A stretch of DNA of 64,000 nucleotides, taken from the NCBI GenBank assembly GCA_963801355.1, contig CAWDEM010000008.1, positions 2,560,001 to 2,624,000 on the forward strand, read 5' to 3'. The notes beneath the pieces are model-generated. The model was not told the origin of the DNA and did not search any database. It worked only from the letters and a program-made list of their open reading frames with translations. Made by a program: the position numbers and the translations under genes. Shown piece after piece: positions 46,066-54,167 of the stretch (position 1 is its first letter; each line of letters starts with the position of its first letter). Source of the stretch: Ignavibacteriota bacterium (lineage in GTDB: Bacteria; Bacteroidota; Ignavibacteria; UBA10030; UBA6906).

Positions 46066-47481
46066 TTATCGTCGCTCTGATTCCGTCGGTTCAGCGTGAA
46101 TGACAACGCGACGGAGCTGGGGAAATTTGTCGTACAGCTTCGTTTCGAGCCGTGAGACTATATGATGGACCTCTTCGAGCGTGAGATGCCGCGCGATCGT
46201 ACAGTCCACGGCCAGGTTGAGCCGTTCACCCATGCGCAGCAGGCGCACACTGGTGCATTTCACGACGTTTTTGTCGGCGATGACCAGCTTTTTGACCGCC
46301 TGTTGGAGACGGTCGTCCTCCGCTGTAATCCCGGTCACCGCTGTCTCGTCGGGCTGATCCTCCTCCATGTGAATGGTCAGATGCTCGACGGAAGGAAGCT
46401 CCCGCCGTATCTCCTGCTCGATCCGGTCGGTCACGCCATGCGCGTCAACGAAACTCTTTCCCTCTTCGTATTCAATATCAAAGGCCACATGGTACTGTCC
46501 GTTAATGAAGTGTACTTCAAGGTTGTGCGGCGGATGGAGGCCGTTCCTGCTGACAATCATTCTGACCTTATCGGCGATGGTCTCATCATTACTCTCGGCC
46601 GGCTCGGCATGGACCACGATATCAATTTCCTTGTGCCGCATGTGGACCGCCTGTTCGATCCTGTCCATGATCGCGTGCGCTTCCTGAAACGGCGTGGTCC
46701 GGCGTACGGCGATGGTTGTGTCGACGAACACCTTGGCTCCGGACGGCCGCAGCCGGATGCTCCGGACTTCCTCCACGCCATCCACCTGGCGGAGAGTCTC
46801 GAGCACCTGCTCATACAGTCCTTCGGGAACGCGATCCATCAGTGCATCAATGGTCCGCTTCCCGAGGCGATAACTCACAAAGAGCACCAGCAATGCGACC
46901 AGAATTGCGGCAACCGCATCCACCCACATGTAGCCGAGTGCTACAAACGCCAATCCGAGCAGGACGACGAGGGAGCTCCACACATCACTCGAGAAGTGGA
47001 GCGCATCGGCTTCGAGCGCCTGGCTGTTGAACTTCTTTGCAACACGCTTCAGGGCCCGGGACCTGCTGATATCGACACCGATCGCCACGACAATGACGAC
47101 AAAGCCCCAGATGTTCGCCTCCACATGGCTTGTGCGGTAGAAGAGGCGTTGAACAGCTTCATAAATTATCCATCCGCACGTAATGATCAGCAGAAGGGTC
47201 TCAGCGAATGCGGAAAGATTCTCGACCTTGCCATGGCCATAGGTGTGTTCGCGGTCGGGCGGACGGTCCGCCACTCGCACCGCAAAATAGGTCATCAGGG
47301 CGGCAAGGAAATCCAGTCCCGAATGCGCCGCCTCGGACAGCAAGCCCAGGCTGTTCGTCTGAAGGCCGACAACGAGCTTCAGCAACGTAATGAAAATGGC
47401 GGCGAGCACCGAAGTGCGCGCAATACGCCGCTTCTCGTTTTTGGGATCTCTCTGCAGGGCGGTGCCGCTATATGATGCCAT
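46066..47481 (-). CDS. Cation diffusion facilitator (FieF-like) with three C-terminal domains
   Basis: SEAAHSGLD, HTYGHGKVE, ADALHFSSD; three segments ending VHAEP / IHMEE / IHAEP. Confidence 0.9.
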   Translation of the reverse strand: MASYSGTALQRDPKNEKRRIARTSVLAAIFITLLKLVVGLQTNSLGLLSEAAHSGLDFLAALMTYFAVRVADRPPDREHTYGHGKVENLSAFAETLLLIITCGWIIYEAVQRLFYRTSHVEANIWGFVVIVVAIGVDISRSRALKRVAKKFNSQALEADALHFSSDVWSSLVVLLGLAFVALGYMWVDAVAAILVALLVLFVSYRLGKRTIDALMDRVPEGLYEQVLETLRQVDGVEEVRSIRLRPSGAKVFVDTTIAVRRTTPFQEAHAIMDRIEQAVHMRHKEIDIVVHAEPAESNDETIADKVRMIVSRNGLHPPHNLEVHFINGQYHVAFDIEYEEGKSFVDAHGVTDRIEQEIRRELPSVEHLTIHMEEDQPDETAVTGITAEDDRLQQAVKKLVIADKNVVKCTSVRLLRMGERLNLAVDCTIARHLTLEEVHHIVSRLETKLYDKFPQLRRVVIHAEPTESERR

Positions 47482-47504
47482 CGCGATGTTCGGATTTCGG
47501 GAAA

Positions 47505-47939
47505 TCAGGGTTCCAGGCGAAAACGGACGCGCAATGCGTTTTCTTCGAATGACCAGGATATCAGTCGAAATCGGCCGATGTCTTCTGTCGTTGCCACATG
47601 TGCACCCGCACAGGGACAGGCATCGAAGTCACCAATGCGGATAATACGCACGATCTCCCCGACCTCATCCGGCAGCCGGGAGAGATTGAACTGCTGTTCG
47701 GCTTCCCGCCGGGCAAGGAACTCTTCCCGCACGGGGAGATCGCGGCCGATCTGTTCGTTCACCAGTGCTTCCACGCGGCGCGCCTCCTCCTCGGTGAGAA
47801 GACGTGTAAAACGGTAGTCGGCTTTGGACTTTTTCTTTTCCAGATGTGTTGTAAACGGACGTCCCATGCCGAACAGCTTCGCCAGTGCGCCGGTGAGCAG
47901 GTGTTCGGCCGAATGCATCCGCGGATCAGCTTCTTTCAT
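47505..47939 (-). CDS. alaX: Free-standing tRNA editing protein (small AlaX-type)
   Basis: RMHSAEHLL (HxxxH) and CPCAGAHV (CxxxH) zinc motifs in a 144-aa protein. Confidence 0.8.
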   Translation of the reverse strand: MKEADPRMHSAEHLLTGALAKLFGMGRPFTTHLEKKKSKADYRFTRLLTEEEARRVEALVNEQIGRDLPVREEFLARREAEQQFNLSRLPDEVGEIVRIIRIGDFDACPCAGAHVATTEDIGRFRLISWSFEENALRVRFRLEP

Positions 47940-47941
47940 TT

Positions 47942-49387
47942 CTATCCTTTCATCACCGCGAGCGGCACCAGCCGCGCCACCTTGCTCGCAATCCCCGCTC
48001 CTTGTACCACATCCACAACCTTATTGACGTTCTTGTACGCATCCGGCTTTTCTTCGGTCAGGCCGCTCCGGCTCTGCCCGCGAACAAGAATGCCCCTGCG
48101 TTTCATCTCCTCCAGCAGTGCCTCGGGGGAGGTGTCCCGCTTGGCTTGCGTCCGGCTCATAGCCCTGCCCGCACCGTGACACGAGGAGCCGAACGTCTCA
48201 GCCATCGCCCGTTCGGTGCCAACCAGGATGTACGATTCCGTGCCCATACTCCCCGGGATCAGCACCGGCTGGCCGACACCGCGCAAATCATCCGGAAGCA
48301 CCGGATGTCCCTTCGGAAAAGCCCGCGTAGCCCCTTTGCGATGGACGAGCACGGTTGTGCGGCGGCCGTTGACACGGTGCTCTTCCTTCTTGGCAATATT
48401 ATGACACACGTCGTACACAACCTGGATGTCATCTGTCCCCATGACCCTCCGGAATACCTGGCGCACTCCGTGCGTCATCATTTGCCGGTTGGCAAACGCG
48501 AAGTTGGCGGCAGCTCCCATTGCCCGCAGATAACTCTCCCCTTCGTGCGATGCGATGGGCACACACGCAAGTTGACGGTCCACGACATTGATCCCATATT
48601 TCTTCATGCTGCCGTCCATCAGGTCAAGGTAATCCGTGCACACTTGATGCCCCAACCCGCGTGAACCGGTATGGATCAGCACAACGATCTGCCCTTTGCG
48701 CACGCCGAAGACACGGGCAGTCGCATCATCATAGATCTCTTTCACTTCCTGAATTTCAAGAAAGTGGTTGCCGGACCCCAGCGTCCCCAGCTGCCGCTGA
48801 CCGCGCTCCTTTGCCCGGCTGCTGACGCTTCCCGGGGCGGCGCCCGGGAGGCATCCGAACTCCTCGATCCGTGCCAGGTCGTTGTCCTCACCATATGAAC
48901 GCCGTACCGCCCAGCGCGCACCGTCTGTCAGCACCTCATCCAGCTCCTTCTCATTCAAGCCCACAGGACCCTTGGAGCCGGTTCCACAGGGAATGTCGCG
49001 GAAGAGCTGGTTCAACAGCGTCGCCAGCTTTGCGCGGATATCCTCGGGGTCTGCGTTCACCGCCAGGAGCCGTACACCACAATTAATGTCGAAACCCACG
49101 CCCCCGGCCGAGACAATCCCGCTCTCCAGATCGGCGGCAGCGACACCACCGATACAGAAGCCGTATCCCTGATGCGCATCGGGCATGGCCAGCGACATGC
49201 CGACAAGACCCGGCAGCGTCGCCACATTGGCGATTTGTTCTGGTGTCTGGTCCGATGCGATCTGTCGCAACAACTCCGCGTCGGCATACACCATGCCGTC
49301 GATCCGCATCCCCTTCTTGGAGGATGCAGGAAGCCTGTAGCGATACTCATCGACACGCTCAAACACGCGCGCACTCCGGGAAGTCAC
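47942..49387 (-). CDS. rtcB: RNA ligase RtcB (long, archaeal-like type)
   Basis: MPDAHQGYGFCIGGV, GFDINCGVR, GTLGSGNHFLE, HTGSRGLGHQVC, HRKGATRA, SSCHGAGR. Confidence 0.97.
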   Translation of the reverse strand: MTSRSARVFERVDEYRYRLPASSKKGMRIDGMVYADAELLRQIASDQTPEQIANVATLPGLVGMSLAMPDAHQGYGFCIGGVAAADLESGIVSAGGVGFDINCGVRLLAVNADPEDIRAKLATLLNQLFRDIPCGTGSKGPVGLNEKELDEVLTDGARWAVRRSYGEDNDLARIEEFGCLPGAAPGSVSSRAKERGQRQLGTLGSGNHFLEIQEVKEIYDDATARVFGVRKGQIVVLIHTGSRGLGHQVCTDYLDLMDGSMKKYGINVVDRQLACVPIASHEGESYLRAMGAAANFAFANRQMMTHGVRQVFRRVMGTDDIQVVYDVCHNIAKKEEHRVNGRRTTVLVHRKGATRAFPKGHPVLPDDLRGVGQPVLIPGSMGTESYILVGTERAMAETFGSSCHGAGRAMSRTQAKRDTSPEALLEEMKRRGILVRGQSRSGLTEEKPDAYKNVNKVVDVVQGAGIASKVARLVPLAVMKG

Positions 49388-49423
49388 ACCAACCTACGTA
49401 TTGTCGCGGGGATATTCAACGCC

Positions 49424-49846
49424 TCAAATATCCAGATACACCCGCGCGCCCCATCCCTCATCATCCTGCCACACGGCGAGCTGGTGATAGGTGACGGCTT
49501 TGATATCCATCCGCACATGGTGCTTCCCCGCGCGGAGCGGTTCCCCGGCGACGGTTGCCTCGAGGCGATCCGGAGTGCACAACGAAATCCGGAATTCTTT
49601 CGAAACAAATCCCTGGCCGTCATAAAGATAGAGAATCTCCGAGAGCCAGCGGACGAGCATCTGTTCTGCATCTGCTGCCTGCAGTGTTATGCTTCTCCGT
49701 TCGCTGGTCTCCACGGTGGAGGGATCAAGAATGAGAGAGACGAGTGCGCCGGCCGCACGAGTGAACGCTTCCGCACATGTTGATCCCCGGGCTTCGATGC
49801 CGATATCCGAAGGATGATCCAAGAAGCGCACGCCGGCCGGAGTCAT
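49424..49846 (-). CDS. Archease
   Basis: LDHPSDIG N-terminus, IKAVTYH, C-terminal YLDI; adjacent to rtcB. Confidence 0.95.
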   Translation of the reverse strand: MTPAGVRFLDHPSDIGIEARGSTCAEAFTRAAGALVSLILDPSTVETSERRSITLQAADAEQMLVRWLSEILYLYDGQGFVSKEFRISLCTPDRLEATVAGEPLRAGKHHVRMDIKAVTYHQLAVWQDDEGWGARVYLDI

Positions 49847-49893
49847 TGGTGTCTCATGGTTTGGAGTCCGGGTCTGAAGCCTGGGATTTTTCT

Positions 49894-50004
49894 CTGGGTT
49901 TAAAGTCTGGGTTTTTCCCCAGACTTTAAGGCCTGAGTTTAAAGCCTGAGTTTTTCCCCAGACTTTAAAGCCTGAGTTTAAAGCCTGAGTTTTTCCCCAG
50001 ACTT
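49894..50004 (-). repeat. About three 39-bp tandem repeats, each containing a hairpin
   Basis: Unit CCTGAGTTTAAAGCCTGAGTTTTTCCCCAGACTTTAAAG on +, with 13-bp sub-periodicity; no unique spacers. Confidence 0.9.
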
Positions 50005-50048
50005 CATTCCCTGATTTTTTCTCTCAGTCGTCAGTTGTTGGGAGGCAG

Positions 50049-50084
50049 AAAAAAAGGGGGGCTGACGCCAATGGCATCAGCCCC
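50049..50084 (-). terminator. Intrinsic terminator
   Basis: GGGGCUGAUGCC-AUU-GGCGUCAGCCCC then CC and U7 on the minus strand. Confidence 0.9.
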
Positions 50085-50196
50085 TGAAAATATGACGGGC
50101 TGGCAGGATCCGGGGACTTACGTCGGGGCCGGACCATCTTCAGCGTCGGGGGGAGTACGCCTGAGCACAGCCCGCCAATACCATCACAGTCGGTAC
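50049..50196 (-). ncRNA. Unassigned structured RNA (sRNA or cis-regulatory leader), ~150 nt
   Basis: Bounded by a sigma70 promoter and a terminator; three-way junction whose G-U pairs only work on the minus strand; no convincing ORF. Confidence 0.65.
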
Positions 50197-50202
50197 AACC
50201 GA

Positions 50203-50231
50203 AGGATAGAGAAATTGGGCTCATGATGCAA
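50203..50231 (-). promoter_or_regulatory. sigma70 promoter for the structured RNA / archease-rtcB run
   Basis: TTGCAT-N17-TATCCT with an AT-rich UP-like tract upstream. Confidence 0.65.
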
Positions 50232-50269
50232 GTCCGATTGAAAAATTAATTCTGCGACTGTTCCCTCTG

Positions 50270-52198
50270 TTAAACACGGTGATTCTCATTCGCCCAACCG
50301 GCAATCACCTCGCGGTTGTCACTGCAGCAGATGTCTTTCCCTTCTGGGGTGAATAGTCTCTGAATGCAATGGTCGTAGCTTTTGACGATTTTGCCTCTCA
50401 CTATTTTGAGCGTGCTGTTGAGGAATTGATTCTGCTCGGTAAATCCTTCGGCAAGGACCCCAACGGCCGATGGAAGCCACCGCTCGGGAAAAAGGCCGGC
50501 ATACCGCCCTCCGTGGCGATATCCGTCTATCTCACGCTGAAGCTGCTTCAGTGCGGCACACTGTCCGTCCACTGTTGAGGGATCATACCGGTGGGCCCTC
50601 ATCCACGATAGTACAACCTCCTTGCTGGGGACAATCAGAGCGACGGTGTACGGCGATTGATTGTTGTAGAGCATCACCTGGTCTATGTATTGTGACTGGC
50701 TGGCGATGGCCTCTTCAATTCCTTCCGGGCTGTACTTTTCTCCGTCGCTCGCAATCAACAGACTCTTGGTCCTGCCCAGCACGTACAGGAACCCGTCCCC
50801 GTCAAGATAACCCAGATCGCCCGTGTACAACCACCCGTTGCGAATAACTTCTTCTGTCGCCTTTTCGTTCCTCCAGTACCCCGCCATGACATTCCCGCCG
50901 CGGACGACAATCTCCCCCTGCCTGCCCGCGGGAAGCGCTGAGCCGTCCTCCGCACAGATCTTGATTTCCAGGGAAGCAACAACCTTTCCGGAAGAGCCCA
51001 ATTTGTGTCCGGCCATTACATTGGCCGAAATGACCGGTGCGGCTTCAGACAACCCGTATCCTTGCAGCATGGGAATCCCGATGGCATAGAAGAACCGCTG
51101 GAGTTCGATGTCGAGCAGTGCTCCTCCCCCGACAATGAATTCCAGCCGCCCCCCGAAGTTCTGGCGGATTTTGGAAAAGAGGATTGCGTCAAACAGTGCA
51201 ACGAGAGGCTTGAGGAACATCCGGAACCCCTTCCCCCGTCGCCAGCCGTCAGCGTTGAACAGATATCCCGTCTTCAGGCCTGCCTTGAACAACATCTGTG
51301 CGAGCTTTCCTTTCTTTAGAATTGCCCCCTCGATGCCTTTACGGAAATTCCTCGCGAGTGCCGGCACGCTCAGGAGAAATGTGGGGCGTGTCTCACGGAT
51401 ATTGAGGGGTATATTCTTCAGAGTTTCTATCGGTGTCTTGCCGACCTGCACGGACGCCATCGATGCGCCGTTTCGCATCAGCGTGTAGATCCCCGCAGTG
51501 TGGGCAAAACAGTGGTCCCAGGGAAGTATCAACAGCGAACAGTACCACTCGGGAACCGGCAGCAGACCCGAAGACTGTTCCACGTTGGTGATGTAATTCA
51601 GGTGCGTCAGCACCACGCCCTTGGGATCGGCGGTTGTTCCGGACGTGTAGGAGATTGTTGCGGGATCGTTTCCGAGTACGGAGGCAACGCGCTTCTCCAG
51701 TTGACCTTCGTGCGTGCTCAGGAACTCCCGTCCGGCACGGGTAACGTCGGCTGCTGAAACCTCGCCCGGTCCGTATTGATCCATCGGATCCAGCATGATC
51801 ACTGTCTCCAACGCGGGAAGCGACTGCCGCAGCTGCCTGACCTTCGCCGCCTGGGTCCCGGAAACGATAGCCATCCGGCATTCCGCGTGAGCGAGGCGAA
51901 ACTGCAGGTCAGCCCCCTCCTGAAGCTTCACCGACAGCGGTACATTGATCGCGGCGGCGTAGAACATACCCAGCTCCGCGATGACCCAATCATTTCTCCC
52001 CTCGGCGATCAGCGCTATGCGATCCCCCTTCCGGATGCCCAGACTGACCAGGCCTGCTCCAAATGCCCGGACGCTTTCCTTCGCCTGCGCGTAGGTCATC
52101 GCTTCGAAGCGATGCCCTCGTTTCTCCAGCAAGAAAGAATTATTGGCAAACCGTTCGACACTGGCCTCGAAGAGGGCGGGCAGCGTGGTTGGAGACAT
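50270..52198 (-). CDS. fadD: Long-chain fatty acid-CoA ligase (AMP-dependent synthetase)
   Basis: YTSGTTADPKGV, QGYGLSE, WLYTGDLG, GRTK. Confidence 0.9.
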   Translation of the reverse strand: MSPTTLPALFEASVERFANNSFLLEKRGHRFEAMTYAQAKESVRAFGAGLVSLGIRKGDRIALIAEGRNDWVIAELGMFYAAAINVPLSVKLQEGADLQFRLAHAECRMAIVSGTQAAKVRQLRQSLPALETVIMLDPMDQYGPGEVSAADVTRAGREFLSTHEGQLEKRVASVLGNDPATISYTSGTTADPKGVVLTHLNYITNVEQSSGLLPVPEWYCSLLILPWDHCFAHTAGIYTLMRNGASMASVQVGKTPIETLKNIPLNIRETRPTFLLSVPALARNFRKGIEGAILKKGKLAQMLFKAGLKTGYLFNADGWRRGKGFRMFLKPLVALFDAILFSKIRQNFGGRLEFIVGGGALLDIELQRFFYAIGIPMLQGYGLSEAAPVISANVMAGHKLGSSGKVVASLEIKICAEDGSALPAGRQGEIVVRGGNVMAGYWRNEKATEEVIRNGWLYTGDLGYLDGDGFLYVLGRTKSLLIASDGEKYSPEGIEEAIASQSQYIDQVMLYNNQSPYTVALIVPSKEVVLSWMRAHRYDPSTVDGQCAALKQLQREIDGYRHGGRYAGLFPERWLPSAVGVLAEGFTEQNQFLNSTLKIVRGKIVKSYDHCIQRLFTPEGKDICCSDNREVIAGWANENHRV

Positions 52199-52282
52199 TG
52201 GGATCCGTGAGAGGCAAAGTTGGGCGGCGCGTAACTGTGATTTGCTGGTGCAAGATACGGCAGGGCAATGCGGAAAGTCAAA

Positions 52283-53053
52283 TTACGGCCGGGATGCCAT
52301 CACCACCAGGTCCTTCGATCGCGTGGCATCGTAGGGATCCATCGAAATCCCGCCGAACATCCGGATTTCATCGAAGCCCGCGGTCCGGAGCGCTTCCTCA
52401 AATTCGGTCTCCAGCAGCGGATACAGATCTGCACTTACCACATCCGGCGGGATGCGGCCGGTGATATCTTCCCGCGTGATCGTGAAACGGATGAGTTTTT
52501 GCCCGTACTCATAGCGGCGTGTGAAGCGATATCCGTCCGCCTCGGTCGTACCGATGATCTGGTCCCTGGAGACAAGTATTTTGCGGTAGTTCAGGATCTG
52601 CGCGAACATGATACCTCCCTGACGTAGCACCTGCCGGAAGCCTGTCAGCACCGAAACCAGAGCCCCGGGAGAAAGGAAATGCGCGAGCGTATTACCGAGC
52701 GTGAATACGCCATCGAACCGGGAAGCCAGACGAGCGGGGAGTTCTGCCAGGTCAGAAGCCACGGTTGTCACTTCCAGCCCCATGTCTTTTGCATGACGCG
52801 CGAGAATCTCAAGCATGCGCGGGCTGAGGTCCACCGCCGTGACCTTCACCCCGAGCTGGGCCAGCAACAACGAATGGAATCCTGTTCCTGCGCCTGCGTC
52901 CACGGCTGTGCGGATGCCGTGATTCTCCACCAGCAACTTGAAGAAGGGTCGTTCTTTTACGAATCGCCCCTCGAATCCCGTCATGGAATCGTACCCGCCG
53001 GCAAGACGGTCATAGAACCGATCGATATCTTCCGATTGCGGGTGATCAGTCAT
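52283..53053 (-). CDS. Class I SAM-dependent methyltransferase (glycine/sarcosine N-methyltransferase-like)
   Basis: VDAGAGTGFH, VDLSPRML, LGNTLAH; start at 53053 overlaps the upstream stop. Confidence 0.85.
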   Translation of the reverse strand: MTDHPQSEDIDRFYDRLAGGYDSMTGFEGRFVKERPFFKLLVENHGIRTAVDAGAGTGFHSLLLAQLGVKVTAVDLSPRMLEILARHAKDMGLEVTTVASDLAELPARLASRFDGVFTLGNTLAHFLSPGALVSVLTGFRQVLRQGGIMFAQILNYRKILVSRDQIIGTTEADGYRFTRRYEYGQKLIRFTITREDITGRIPPDVVSADLYPLLETEFEEALRTAGFDEIRMFGGISMDPYDATRSKDLVVMASRP

Positions 53054-54167
53054 GCGGTCCATAGGCGGGTACCTCTCCGCGAAAATGTTGGTACAACGGC
53101 GAATGCAGCTCGTGAAACCTCCGTTGGTACTCTTCCCGTGATATACCGTTGTGCCAGAAGCCCGAGAGCATCGCCAGACCGGTAACCGCCACGAACACTC
53201 CCGCGACCAACGTGCCGTACACCCATGTGGGGATCGCTCTCGCATGCGGGCCGGCGCGAACATGAAGTGTATCCTTGACCGGACAGACCTCCACACACGC
53301 CATGCAGCTCATACATTCATCGCTCATCACGCGCGTGGTGTTGTGTACGTTGATGCCGGATGGGCACGCCCTGGTGCAGAGCTCACAGTCAACACATGTT
53401 GCTTTGTTGCGTGTGATTTTCAACGGGCTCAGAAAACTTGTGATCCCGAGCAGGGCGCCGTACGGGCAGAGATATCGACACCAGAAGTTCTTGACCACTA
53501 CAGAGAGAAGCATGAGTATAAGAATCGTGAGTAGTGCGACCCCGGAGACCTCGGTGAAGAAGAGGTACATCTTCACGTCAGCCATCTTGTTGTACGGACT
53601 GTAGATGAAACCCTTCAGCGCTTCGGCGTCCATGCCGGCGATCGACCAGACGAAGAATGCCATCAGGAAGTACTTCAGGGAACGCAACGGATAGTCCAGC
53701 CATCGCGGAACAGTCAGATTCCGGCCGAAGATCTTCTTGCCGAGCATCCAGAGGGCTTCACTCAAGGTCCCCACCGGACAGAGCCAGCTGCAAAACGCCT
53801 TCTTCAGCAGGAAGCTGACGAGTACAATTGCAAGCAAGATGAACAAGCCGGAAGGATGAATGCTGTTGACAATGCCGGTCTGGAGCCAGTAACTCAGGCT
53901 GATGAGCGCGCTGATGGGGAGAAACCCCTCGACTCCCGGGGGACGTGCTACAAAGGGGGTCTGGCCACCTGATTCGCCCCACTCCACAAAAAAGTGGAAT
54001 TCCACGCCCATCCAGATGCACAGCAGAACAAACGCGAGTTGCACGGCGGAGCGTTGATACTGCGAATCTTCCTTGAGCCGCCAGAGGGCACGCTTGAACA
54101 GGCGGGGTTCCGACCCGTACTGTATTCTCCGGCGACGCATCTCGGCCGGTATCTTCTTCACGCGCAC
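53046..54167 (-). CDS. YccM/NapH-like membrane 4Fe-4S protein
   Basis: RPPGVEGFLPI, FCSWLCPVG, WCRYLCPYG, two ferredoxin motifs; GTG at 54167 with AGGAG RBS. Confidence 0.85.
   Translation of the reverse strand: MRVKKIPAEMRRRRIQYGSEPRLFKRALWRLKEDSQYQRSAVQLAFVLLCIWMGVEFHFFVEWGESGGQTPFVARPPGVEGFLPISALISLSYWLQTGIVNSIHPSGLFILLAIVLVSFLLKKAFCSWLCPVGTLSEALWMLGKKIFGRNLTVPRWLDYPLRSLKYFLMAFFVWSIAGMDAEALKGFIYSPYNKMADVKMYLFFTEVSGVALLTILILMLLSVVVKNFWCRYLCPYGALLGITSFLSPLKITRNKATCVDCELCTRACPSGINVHNTTRVMSDECMSCMACVEVCPVKDTLHVRAGPHARAIPTWVYGTLVAGVFVAVTGLAMLSGFWHNGISREEYQRRFHELHSPLYQHFRGEVPAYGPHD

Follow-up and report, generated by a model that had tools for sequence, protein, structure and literature searches.

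RsaE and RoxS of Firmicutes are C-rich small RNAs (sRNAs) of the same kind as the mycobacterial and actinobacterial 6C RNA. Noncoding RNAs linked to rtcB are, to our knowledge, known only as Y RNAs acting with Rsr, and the only regulation of bacterial RtcB operons that we know to be understood is of the RtcR/sigma-54 type. Y RNAs are described as being encoded with rsr and rtcB (PMC4201824, PMC7790460), and RtcR is described as a sigma-54 activator with a CARF domain that controls rtcBA in E. coli and Salmonella and senses damaged tRNAs (PMC7790460). For C-rich-loop sRNAs such as mycobacterial and actinobacterial 6C (B11), the C-rich loops are reported to act on G-rich targets (PMC6486639). 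In this study, we analysed a 64,000-nt stretch of the genome of an Ignavibacteriota bacterium (hereafter the window; assembly GCA_963801355.1, contig CAWDEM010000008.1), whose minus strand carries, at 50049..50231, an RNA element upstream of the genes for archease and RtcB. This element is a real, previously undescribed RNA family under very strong purifying selection, with a narrow distribution in two genera of one family. The initial annotation had offered two interpretations, either a new cis-acting switch that gates the operon for RNA repair or an independent sRNA whose C-rich loops act as seeds. We tentatively prefer a stand-alone small RNA whose functional site would be the C-rich loop of stem P2, to which we give somewhat less than an even chance; it seems to fit somewhat better than a cis switch.

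The element comprises the following features.

50203..50231, minus strand: promoter-like block, with a -35 element TTGCAT at 50231-50226, a 17-nt spacer and a -10 element TATCCT at 50208-50203.

50178..50196, minus strand: poorly structured 5' segment of the predicted RNA, including the GUACC/GGUAU hairpin.

50093..50177, minus strand: three-way-junction core of 85 nt, from the minimum free energy (MFE) and centroid folds and RNAalifold.

50177-50165 with 50104-50093, minus strand: stem P1, in which UGGCGGGCUG (50177-50168) pairs with CAGCCCGUCA (50102-50093).

50164-50157 with 50146-50140, minus strand: stem P2, UCAG(G)CGU pairing with ACGCUGA.

50156-50147, minus strand: C-rich apical loop of P2, ACUCCCCCCG, from sequence and fold.

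50135-50129 with 50113-50107, minus strand: stem P3, GGUCCGG pairing with CCGGAUC, with a CCCC internal loop.

50124-50115, minus strand: tip of P3, a GAC-GUAA-GUC cap, from sequence and fold.

50085..50092, minus strand: A/U-rich linker of 8 nt between P1 and the terminator, from sequence.

50049..50084, minus strand: intrinsic terminator, with the hairpin at 50084-50058 and U7 at 50055-50049.

The signals suggest transcription of this unit, with a predicted RNA start near 50196. No RNA sequencing run was found to cover 49300-50700, and three metatranscriptome runs yielded no contig from it, which bears neither way on transcription. Every element that the initial annotation had drawn (promoter, P1, P2, P3, and the terminator with U7) is present on the minus strand where it had been placed. 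RNAfold gave the minus strand from 50196 to 50049 a free energy of -68.6 kcal/mol and a z-score of -3.59, with 0 of 200 dinucleotide shuffles equally good, and both the MFE and the centroid fold reproduced the P1/P2/P3 junction and terminator exactly as drawn before. The initial annotation had noted that the G-U pairs work on this strand only; the complementary plus strand reached a z-score of no better than -1.43, with 15 of 200 shuffles equally good. P1 consists of 12 mostly G-C pairs and should therefore form unaided. The terminator scan called 12 pairs, nine of them G-C, around a 3-nt loop followed by U7.

Other assignments of the element were considered and rejected. A 66-codon frame (50224-50024) has no Pfam match, and its ATG is missing from most copies. 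A hammerhead-like reading of junction segment J2/3 depends on CUGAAGA, which is found in the genome of the window (G000) and reads CUGAAAA in every other copy, and no Rfam ribozyme family matches. Mimicry in P1 of the G3:U70 pair of the AlaX/AlaRS type was dismissed since the third pair varies between copies (G-U, G-C or A-U) and is thus unconserved.

The RNA is single-copy in G000. BLASTN found it in all four other genomes of the genus (G001-G004) and in none of 36 related genomes from other genera. Eight further loci were recovered from metagenome contigs with a strict pattern, and R1, a covariance model of 131 positions, confirmed them all. A second covariance model restricted to the core (R2) placed the RNA in 6 of 68 genomes of the family, namely all five of the genus and one of six (G074) of the genus g40; the 62 other family genomes and 150 other genomes sampled across the phylum were negative in these searches, which used prefilters and may have missed weak homologs. 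A loose pattern scan of the genome contigs returned at least 119 stretches, among which R1 confirmed only L099, which carries the RNA, the others being chance matches that lie mostly in high-GC genomes. An order-wide pattern search for paralogs of the P2 hairpin, with up to two mismatches, matched 64 of 277 genomes; the 18 regions that were fetched appeared coding-like by eye and lacked a P1/P3 context, R2 found none in the family search, and we rejected the matches as due to chance or coding sequence.

Among nine full-length copies, the mean pairwise identity is 0.45 upstream of the -35 element, 0.76 in the promoter block, 0.73 in the 5' segment, 0.964 in the junction core (9 of 87 columns vary), 0.62 in the linker, whose length also varies, 0.87 in the terminator, and 0.29 beyond the terminator. 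The 85-nt core is 96% identical among the copies, versus a nucleotide identity to G000 of only 68-88% for the flanking protein genes, and about 70 consecutive core bases are invariant in the copies outside G000. This constraint on the core indicates a functional RNA. The terminator hairpin was called in all five genomes of the genus (G000-G004), and its stem contains one pair changed on both sides, from A-U to G-C. The 5' hairpin GUACC/GGUAU proposed in the initial annotation is present in the window but is not conserved, being broken in G003 and in the metagenome contig L135.

We also inspected the 450 nt upstream of archease in 16 archease loci of the family outside the genus, and one diverged homolog was found, in G074 (L143:1333-1427). 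It scored 24.7 bits with R1 run with its filters off (E 2e-6) and 42.4 bits with R2 (E 1.9e-4 genome-wide), and by itself it folds to the same three-way junction (-43.6 kcal/mol, z -3.22). In a structure-guided alignment, the P2 hairpin and its loop CUCCCCCCG are identical between the genus and G074, and this loop is the only unpaired segment identical in both genera. The base of P3 is kept, with a GAAA cap, and the CCCC internal loop of P3 is not; J2/3 reads AAAAU in the genus versus CAGCAC in G074, and the distal part of P3 is replaced, as far as this single distant homolog can represent its genus. Retention of the P2 loop and stem together with replacement of J2/3 and distal P3 would be expected if the loop carries a seed, but not if the junction forms a ligand pocket.

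In the alignment of these copies (A7), 98.4% of the pair cells hold standard pairs. Four pairs are changed on both sides, three in P1 and one in P2, and several one-sided changes also keep pairing. The covariation evidence appears real but thin, since all four compensatory changes come from G074 alone, in an alignment fitted to the model. The structural conservation on which the initial annotation had made its reading depend is seen in the recovery of homologs by R1 and R2 and in these four compensatory pairs. The flanks of the G074 homolog are built differently: it has no separate terminator hairpin, P1 running straight into U7, and about 88 nt of unrelated sequence stand 5' of P1 in place of the 5' segment of the genus. 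In several genus copies the linker reads UUUUA directly 3' of P1, where G074 has U7. A further R1 match in G074 lies on another contig (C7:75123-75176; 26.1 bits, E 0.0088) and, at 54 nt, covers no more than a small part of the 131-position model.

The genes around the element, assigned with Pfam, are the following.

46066..49846, minus strand: downstream co-oriented cluster of four genes.

49846-49424, minus strand: archease.

49387-47942, minus strand: RtcB.

47939-47505, minus strand: AlaX-like tRNA_SAD protein of 144 aa.

47481-46066, minus strand: CDF cation-efflux protein.

50270..52198, minus strand: AMP-binding (acyl-CoA-synthetase-like) gene, the upstream neighbour, outside the element.

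The order archease-rtcB-AlaX-like-CDF is also present in G001, G004, G074, G071, G073, G052, and G053; in G074, archease-rtcB-SAD is followed by an unknown open reading frame (ORF) and then by CDF. The AMP-binding gene lies upstream in 10 of the 11 genus-type copies that show upstream sequence. In L135 and G074, the AMP-binding gene is absent and a methyltransferase gene precedes the RNA. The window has an ortholog of that methyltransferase (47% identity) upstream of its AMP-binding gene, and the methyltransferase precedes archease in the genera g37 and g40, so that a region methyltransferase-(AMP-binding)-(RNA)-archease-rtcB-SAD-CDF is syntenic across three genera. Given this synteny and its position behind the methyltransferase in L135 and G074, the RNA is not merely the 3' end of the AMP-binding gene. 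We consider it most improbable that only the terminator has a function, namely in ending the upstream gene, with the junction being incidental. Transcripts of the AMP-binding gene meet no terminator before 50084 and would also end at 50084-50049, but conservation of the junction greatly exceeds that of the terminator loop, the linker and the genes nearby. The junction also carries compensatory changes, is preceded by its own promoter-like block, and has a different gene upstream in L135 and G074.

Several features of the neighbourhood are recorded here in their own right. The cluster of SAM-methyltransferase, archease, RtcB, AlaX-like tRNA_SAD and CDF genes occurs in three genera of the family (window 46066-53296; loci L229, L235, L238-L242), and other genera have archease-rtcB by itself. 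The cluster groups an RNA ligase, a protein with a tRNA-editing domain and a metal exporter. G074 has a second rtcB-like locus in two separate pieces (C15:71932-73069; L223, L224), the operon rtcB of G073 (L238 864-2281) was matched by tblastn in four pieces, and that of G001 (L003/L241) in two pieces offset by 4 nt; these splits could be frameshifts, pseudogenes or assembly errors. The spacer from the RNA terminator to the archease start is occupied in G000, and in no other of 13 aligned copies, by a 39-nt tandem repeat of about three copies (94% matches; window 49894-50018), each unit of which is able to form a hairpin. Pieces related to this repeat (25-64 nt, 84-96% identity) occur in six other 1-kb bins of the genome.

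The history of the locus in one sub-lineage bears directly on what the RNA can do. A genome-wide search of G003, which is 94% complete, gave no match to archease or RtcB. Its locus (L005 857-1500) retains the RNA; 17 codons of archease remain behind it, and the SAD and CDF genes come next, while the related metagenome contig L135 (1130-1596) retains a longer, frame-broken archease remnant (an ORF of about 77 codons) and then SAD. G003 and L135 share sequence at the junction before SAD, and the arrangement may be read as one ancestral deletion of rtcB followed by decay of archease. The junction core is intact in both, and their two substitutions in P1 keep pairing. An intact RNA in the absence of RtcB and archease means that selection maintains the RNA independently of them, and a function dedicated to those two proteins is thereby ruled out. 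The RNA therefore cannot serve solely to gate RNA repair. The remaining options are control of whatever lies downstream or action elsewhere in the cell.

This persistence is also one of the points to set against a Y-RNA-like role, in which the RNA-repair machinery would have the RNA as its ribonucleoprotein partner or its substrate, for example as a scaffold, a decoy, or a ligation substrate of RtcB/archease. Linkage of the RNA gene to rtcB in two genera, a long terminal stem closing a structured module, and core invariance that suits protein binding agree with such a role, for which the Y RNAs of rsr-rtcBA operons provide a precedent (PMC4201824, PMC7790460). However, no TROVE/Rsr gene (PF05731) was matched in G000, which is 100% complete, in a search that was positive in the controls D. 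radiodurans and B. thetaiotaomicron, and ARAGORN found no tRNA-like gene or fold at 49000-51000. The initial annotation was thus right that the locus lacks an Rsr gene. With the RNA intact in G003 and L135, and with no match to a Y RNA or tRNA family in the Rfam searches of the element, we regard this role as improbable.

Searches for known families were negative throughout. Rfam 15 at gathering thresholds gave no matches in the whole window, in agreement with the initial annotation, which had recognised no riboswitch consensus. In a permissive search with the element alone, the best match was sX11 (17.3 bits versus a threshold of 70, E 0.28), and the G074 homolog had no matches at E up to 1. 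Other weak permissive matches are located in the downstream 39-nt repeat, which attracts chance matches such as Termite-leu (22.7 bits versus a threshold of 51). No literature on this RNA was found in a search whose scope lay outside subscription-only papers and supplementary motif lists. The literature retrieved on archease and rtcB with noncoding or upstream RNA contained no bacterial leader RNA, that on archease and riboswitches yielded only an unrelated genome paper, and that on Ignavibacteria and RNA motifs nothing specific.

As a stand-alone small RNA, the element would work as follows. A conserved sigma-70-type promoter would start the RNA near 50196; the transcript would fold to the three-way junction, and nearly all copies would end at the intrinsic terminator and be released as a stable RNA about 150 nt long. 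Its functional site would most likely be the P2 apical loop CUCCCCCCG, which may, in the manner of C-rich-loop sRNAs, pair with G-rich stretches of other RNAs that resemble Shine-Dalgarno sequences, and the remainder of the junction would provide a rigid scaffold or a protein-binding surface. The terminator would also insulate the archease-rtcB-AlaX-like-CDF operon, to whose transcription residual read-through may add. Transcription, its end at U7, and base pairing in trans are what we infer from the sequence. The promoter-like block and the Rho-independent terminator of its own are, as sequence signals, features of an sRNA gene. Conservation of the P2 loop fits the C-rich seed loops that the initial annotation had proposed, and the CCCC internal loop of P3 does not persist in G074.

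The promoter proposed in the initial annotation is conserved in that TTGC, the 17-nt spacer and TAT are kept in all 11 copies that show this stretch; it agrees, however, at only 7 of 12 positions with the E. coli consensus and falls below the threshold of a consensus scan, which was not tuned to this lineage. Sites of the type TTGC..-N17-TATATT are enriched before the tRNA genes of G000, where matches of at least 9 of 12 occur in 10 of 47 upstream regions versus 16 of 235 shuffled ones; several of these sites carry TTGC in the -35 element, and the RNA promoter block resembles them. The G074 homolog has TTGACA-17-TATATT (11/12) about 90 nt upstream of P1. The upstream sites of G000 tRNA genes as a set are sigma-70-like, TTG(A/C)..-N17-TA(T/A)ATT. 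The Bacteroidetes-type promoter TAnnTTTG was rejected as a candidate, being unenriched before the same genes (2 of 47 versus 7 of 235 shuffled).

The initial annotation had also seen riboswitch-like logic in the element, on the ground that the 3' arm of P1 and the CGGCCCC segment could each pair with the 5' arm of the terminator and thus form an antiterminator. This complementarity exists, as both C(A/G)GCCC of P1 and CGGCCCC can pair with GGGGCUG, but it is energetically uncompetitive: the forced antiterminator has -52.6 kcal/mol versus -68.6 kcal/mol for the native fold, a penalty of 16 kcal/mol. The terminator still formed when the 5' arm of P1 was blocked, and the antiterminator is absent in G074, which has no separate terminator hairpin. 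The motif GGGCUG/CAGCCC is common to all four arms of P1 and the terminator, and we take the complementarity to be a trace of the arms' shared origin, possibly a reinforced second terminator, rather than regulatory logic.

A true riboswitch, in which the junction would act as an aptamer that binds a small molecule or an ion such as Mn2+ and the ligand would control termination, accordingly has only a small chance in our assessment. It would suit the 5'-leader position with a terminator, the conserved junction 5' of the operon in 13 of 13 loci, and the invariance of the core within the genus. It would also suit an operon in which genes for a metal-dependent ligase and for cation efflux are always found, the latter being kept in G003, as RtcB needs Mn2+ and the CDF exporter might handle Mn2+. 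However, the 12-pair, G-C-rich P1 should form ligand-free, and the antiterminator is far too costly. J2/3 and distal P3, where a pocket would be expected, are not shared by the genus and G074, which do have the same P2 loop. The distribution is very narrow (6/68 family genomes and 0/150 other phylum genomes sampled), and no known class matches. The riboswitch-like logic of the initial annotation is not retained here.

Several observations nevertheless weigh against the stand-alone sRNA that we prefer. The invariance of about 70 bases, including stems, exceeds that usual for a seed-type sRNA and points to tertiary folding or to a partner, whether protein or ligand. Wherever downstream sequence is visible, in 12 genus-type copies (10 with an intact archease gene and two with remnants) and in G074, archease directly follows the RNA in the same orientation. 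The terminator is only 43 nt away from the start codon in G002 and L137, and in G074 the distance is 68 nt, which suits a leader. A scan of G000 and G001-G004 found no conserved promoter-like site between the terminator and archease, although this negative is weak, since the consensus scan fails to call the promoter of the RNA itself as well. Hfq was not detected in G000, a genome rated 100% complete, and any chaperone would have to be of another kind. The operons of G000, G001, G004, G074, and G003 contain no conserved site among the G-runs complementary to the P2 loop. Finally, 19 of 195 GGGGGGAG sites in G000 (9.7%) fall in intergenic space, which makes up 6.7% of the genome, a slight excess obtained with crude gene starts in one genome.

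Some of the same observations favour the main rival, which we judge possible but unlikely: the RNA would be a leader or attenuator acting in cis on the archease-rtcB-AlaX-like-CDF operon, with the RNA promoter as the operon promoter. Most transcripts would end at the terminator, or in G074 at P1 with U7, and read-through would depend on a trans factor acting on the junction or the C-rich loop. A protein might be that factor, as might an RNA, for instance damaged or G-rich fragments. The invariable co-orientation with the operon, the short gap to the start codon, and the invariance of the whole core, which suits a factor-binding RNA, agree with an attenuator, and the constant position 5' of archease is as the initial annotation had expected of a cis-regulatory element. 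No RtcR domain, that of the known rtcB regulator, was detected in G000, and after the loss of rtcB the RNA still precedes SAD and CDF. Within the gap, a promoter-like site is present in G002 alone (L002 786-815, minus strand; TTGGCA-18-TATCTT, 9/12), over the terminator loop and U tract and directed towards archease; it is absent in G000, G001, G003, and G004, and 0.4 such sites are expected by chance per region. Against an attenuator stand the lack of a competitive antiterminator, the lack of a separate expression platform in G074, and a promoter scan untuned to the lineage, so that a gap promoter may exist. Moreover, because the archease operon occurs without the RNA in G071, G073, G052, and G053, and the region is syntenic across three genera, the adjacency of RNA and archease in two genera may be plain inheritance.

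A more specific form of attenuation, to which we assign a low probability, is an RNA-sensing leader unrelated to T-boxes that would serve an operon for RNA repair and tRNA quality in a genome without RtcR. The P2 loop would capture either damage-derived RNA, G-rich or ended by a cyclic phosphate, or a repair protein. This capture would unfold P1, which is the terminator stem in G074, and polymerase would read into archease-rtcB-AlaX-like-CDF.

If the stand-alone sRNA that we prefer is correct and the RNA acts in trans, it would add a candidate sRNA to a lineage from which our literature searches found none described. If it is instead true that the RNA regulates the cluster, it would represent a new control principle for RNA repair. 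The practical value is limited by the two-genus distribution and by the nature of the carriers, which are here assemblies, metagenome contigs and one record titled as a MAG.

Comparison with the 6C-type sRNAs shows a small RNA with, as sequence signals, its own promoter and intrinsic terminator, and an apical loop with a run of at least six C that is conserved across genera; such sRNAs do not require Hfq, and none was found here. Unlike 6C and RsaE, however, the RNA shows no homology to either, neither being among its Rfam matches even at E up to 10, and it has a three-way junction closed by a 12-bp stem versus the two tandem hairpins of 6C, in an Ignavibacteria-like lineage. With the Y RNAs (YrlA/YrlB) it shares the linkage of an RNA gene to rtcB and a long stem formed from the 5' and 3' parts. 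In contrast to YrlA/YrlB, it is accompanied by no Rsr (TROVE) gene and has neither a tRNA-like domain with a T-arm nor an Rfam match; its neighbours are archease, AlaX-like and CDF genes rather than rsr and rtcA, and it outlasts the loss of rtcB. Terminating riboswitches and attenuators have the same succession of promoter, structured leader, terminator and operon with no evident intervening promoter, but differ from this RNA in its uncompetitive antiterminator, the missing expression platform in G074, the diverged junction bases, the narrow distribution, and the absence of a known class. The RtcR system likewise concerns control of an rtcB operon; RtcR is a protein, whereas the element here is an RNA, and the operon is archease-rtcB without rtcA. 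A different, strongly conserved RNA thus heads archease-rtcB-AlaX-like-CDF in a lineage in which RtcR, Rsr, and Hfq were not detected.

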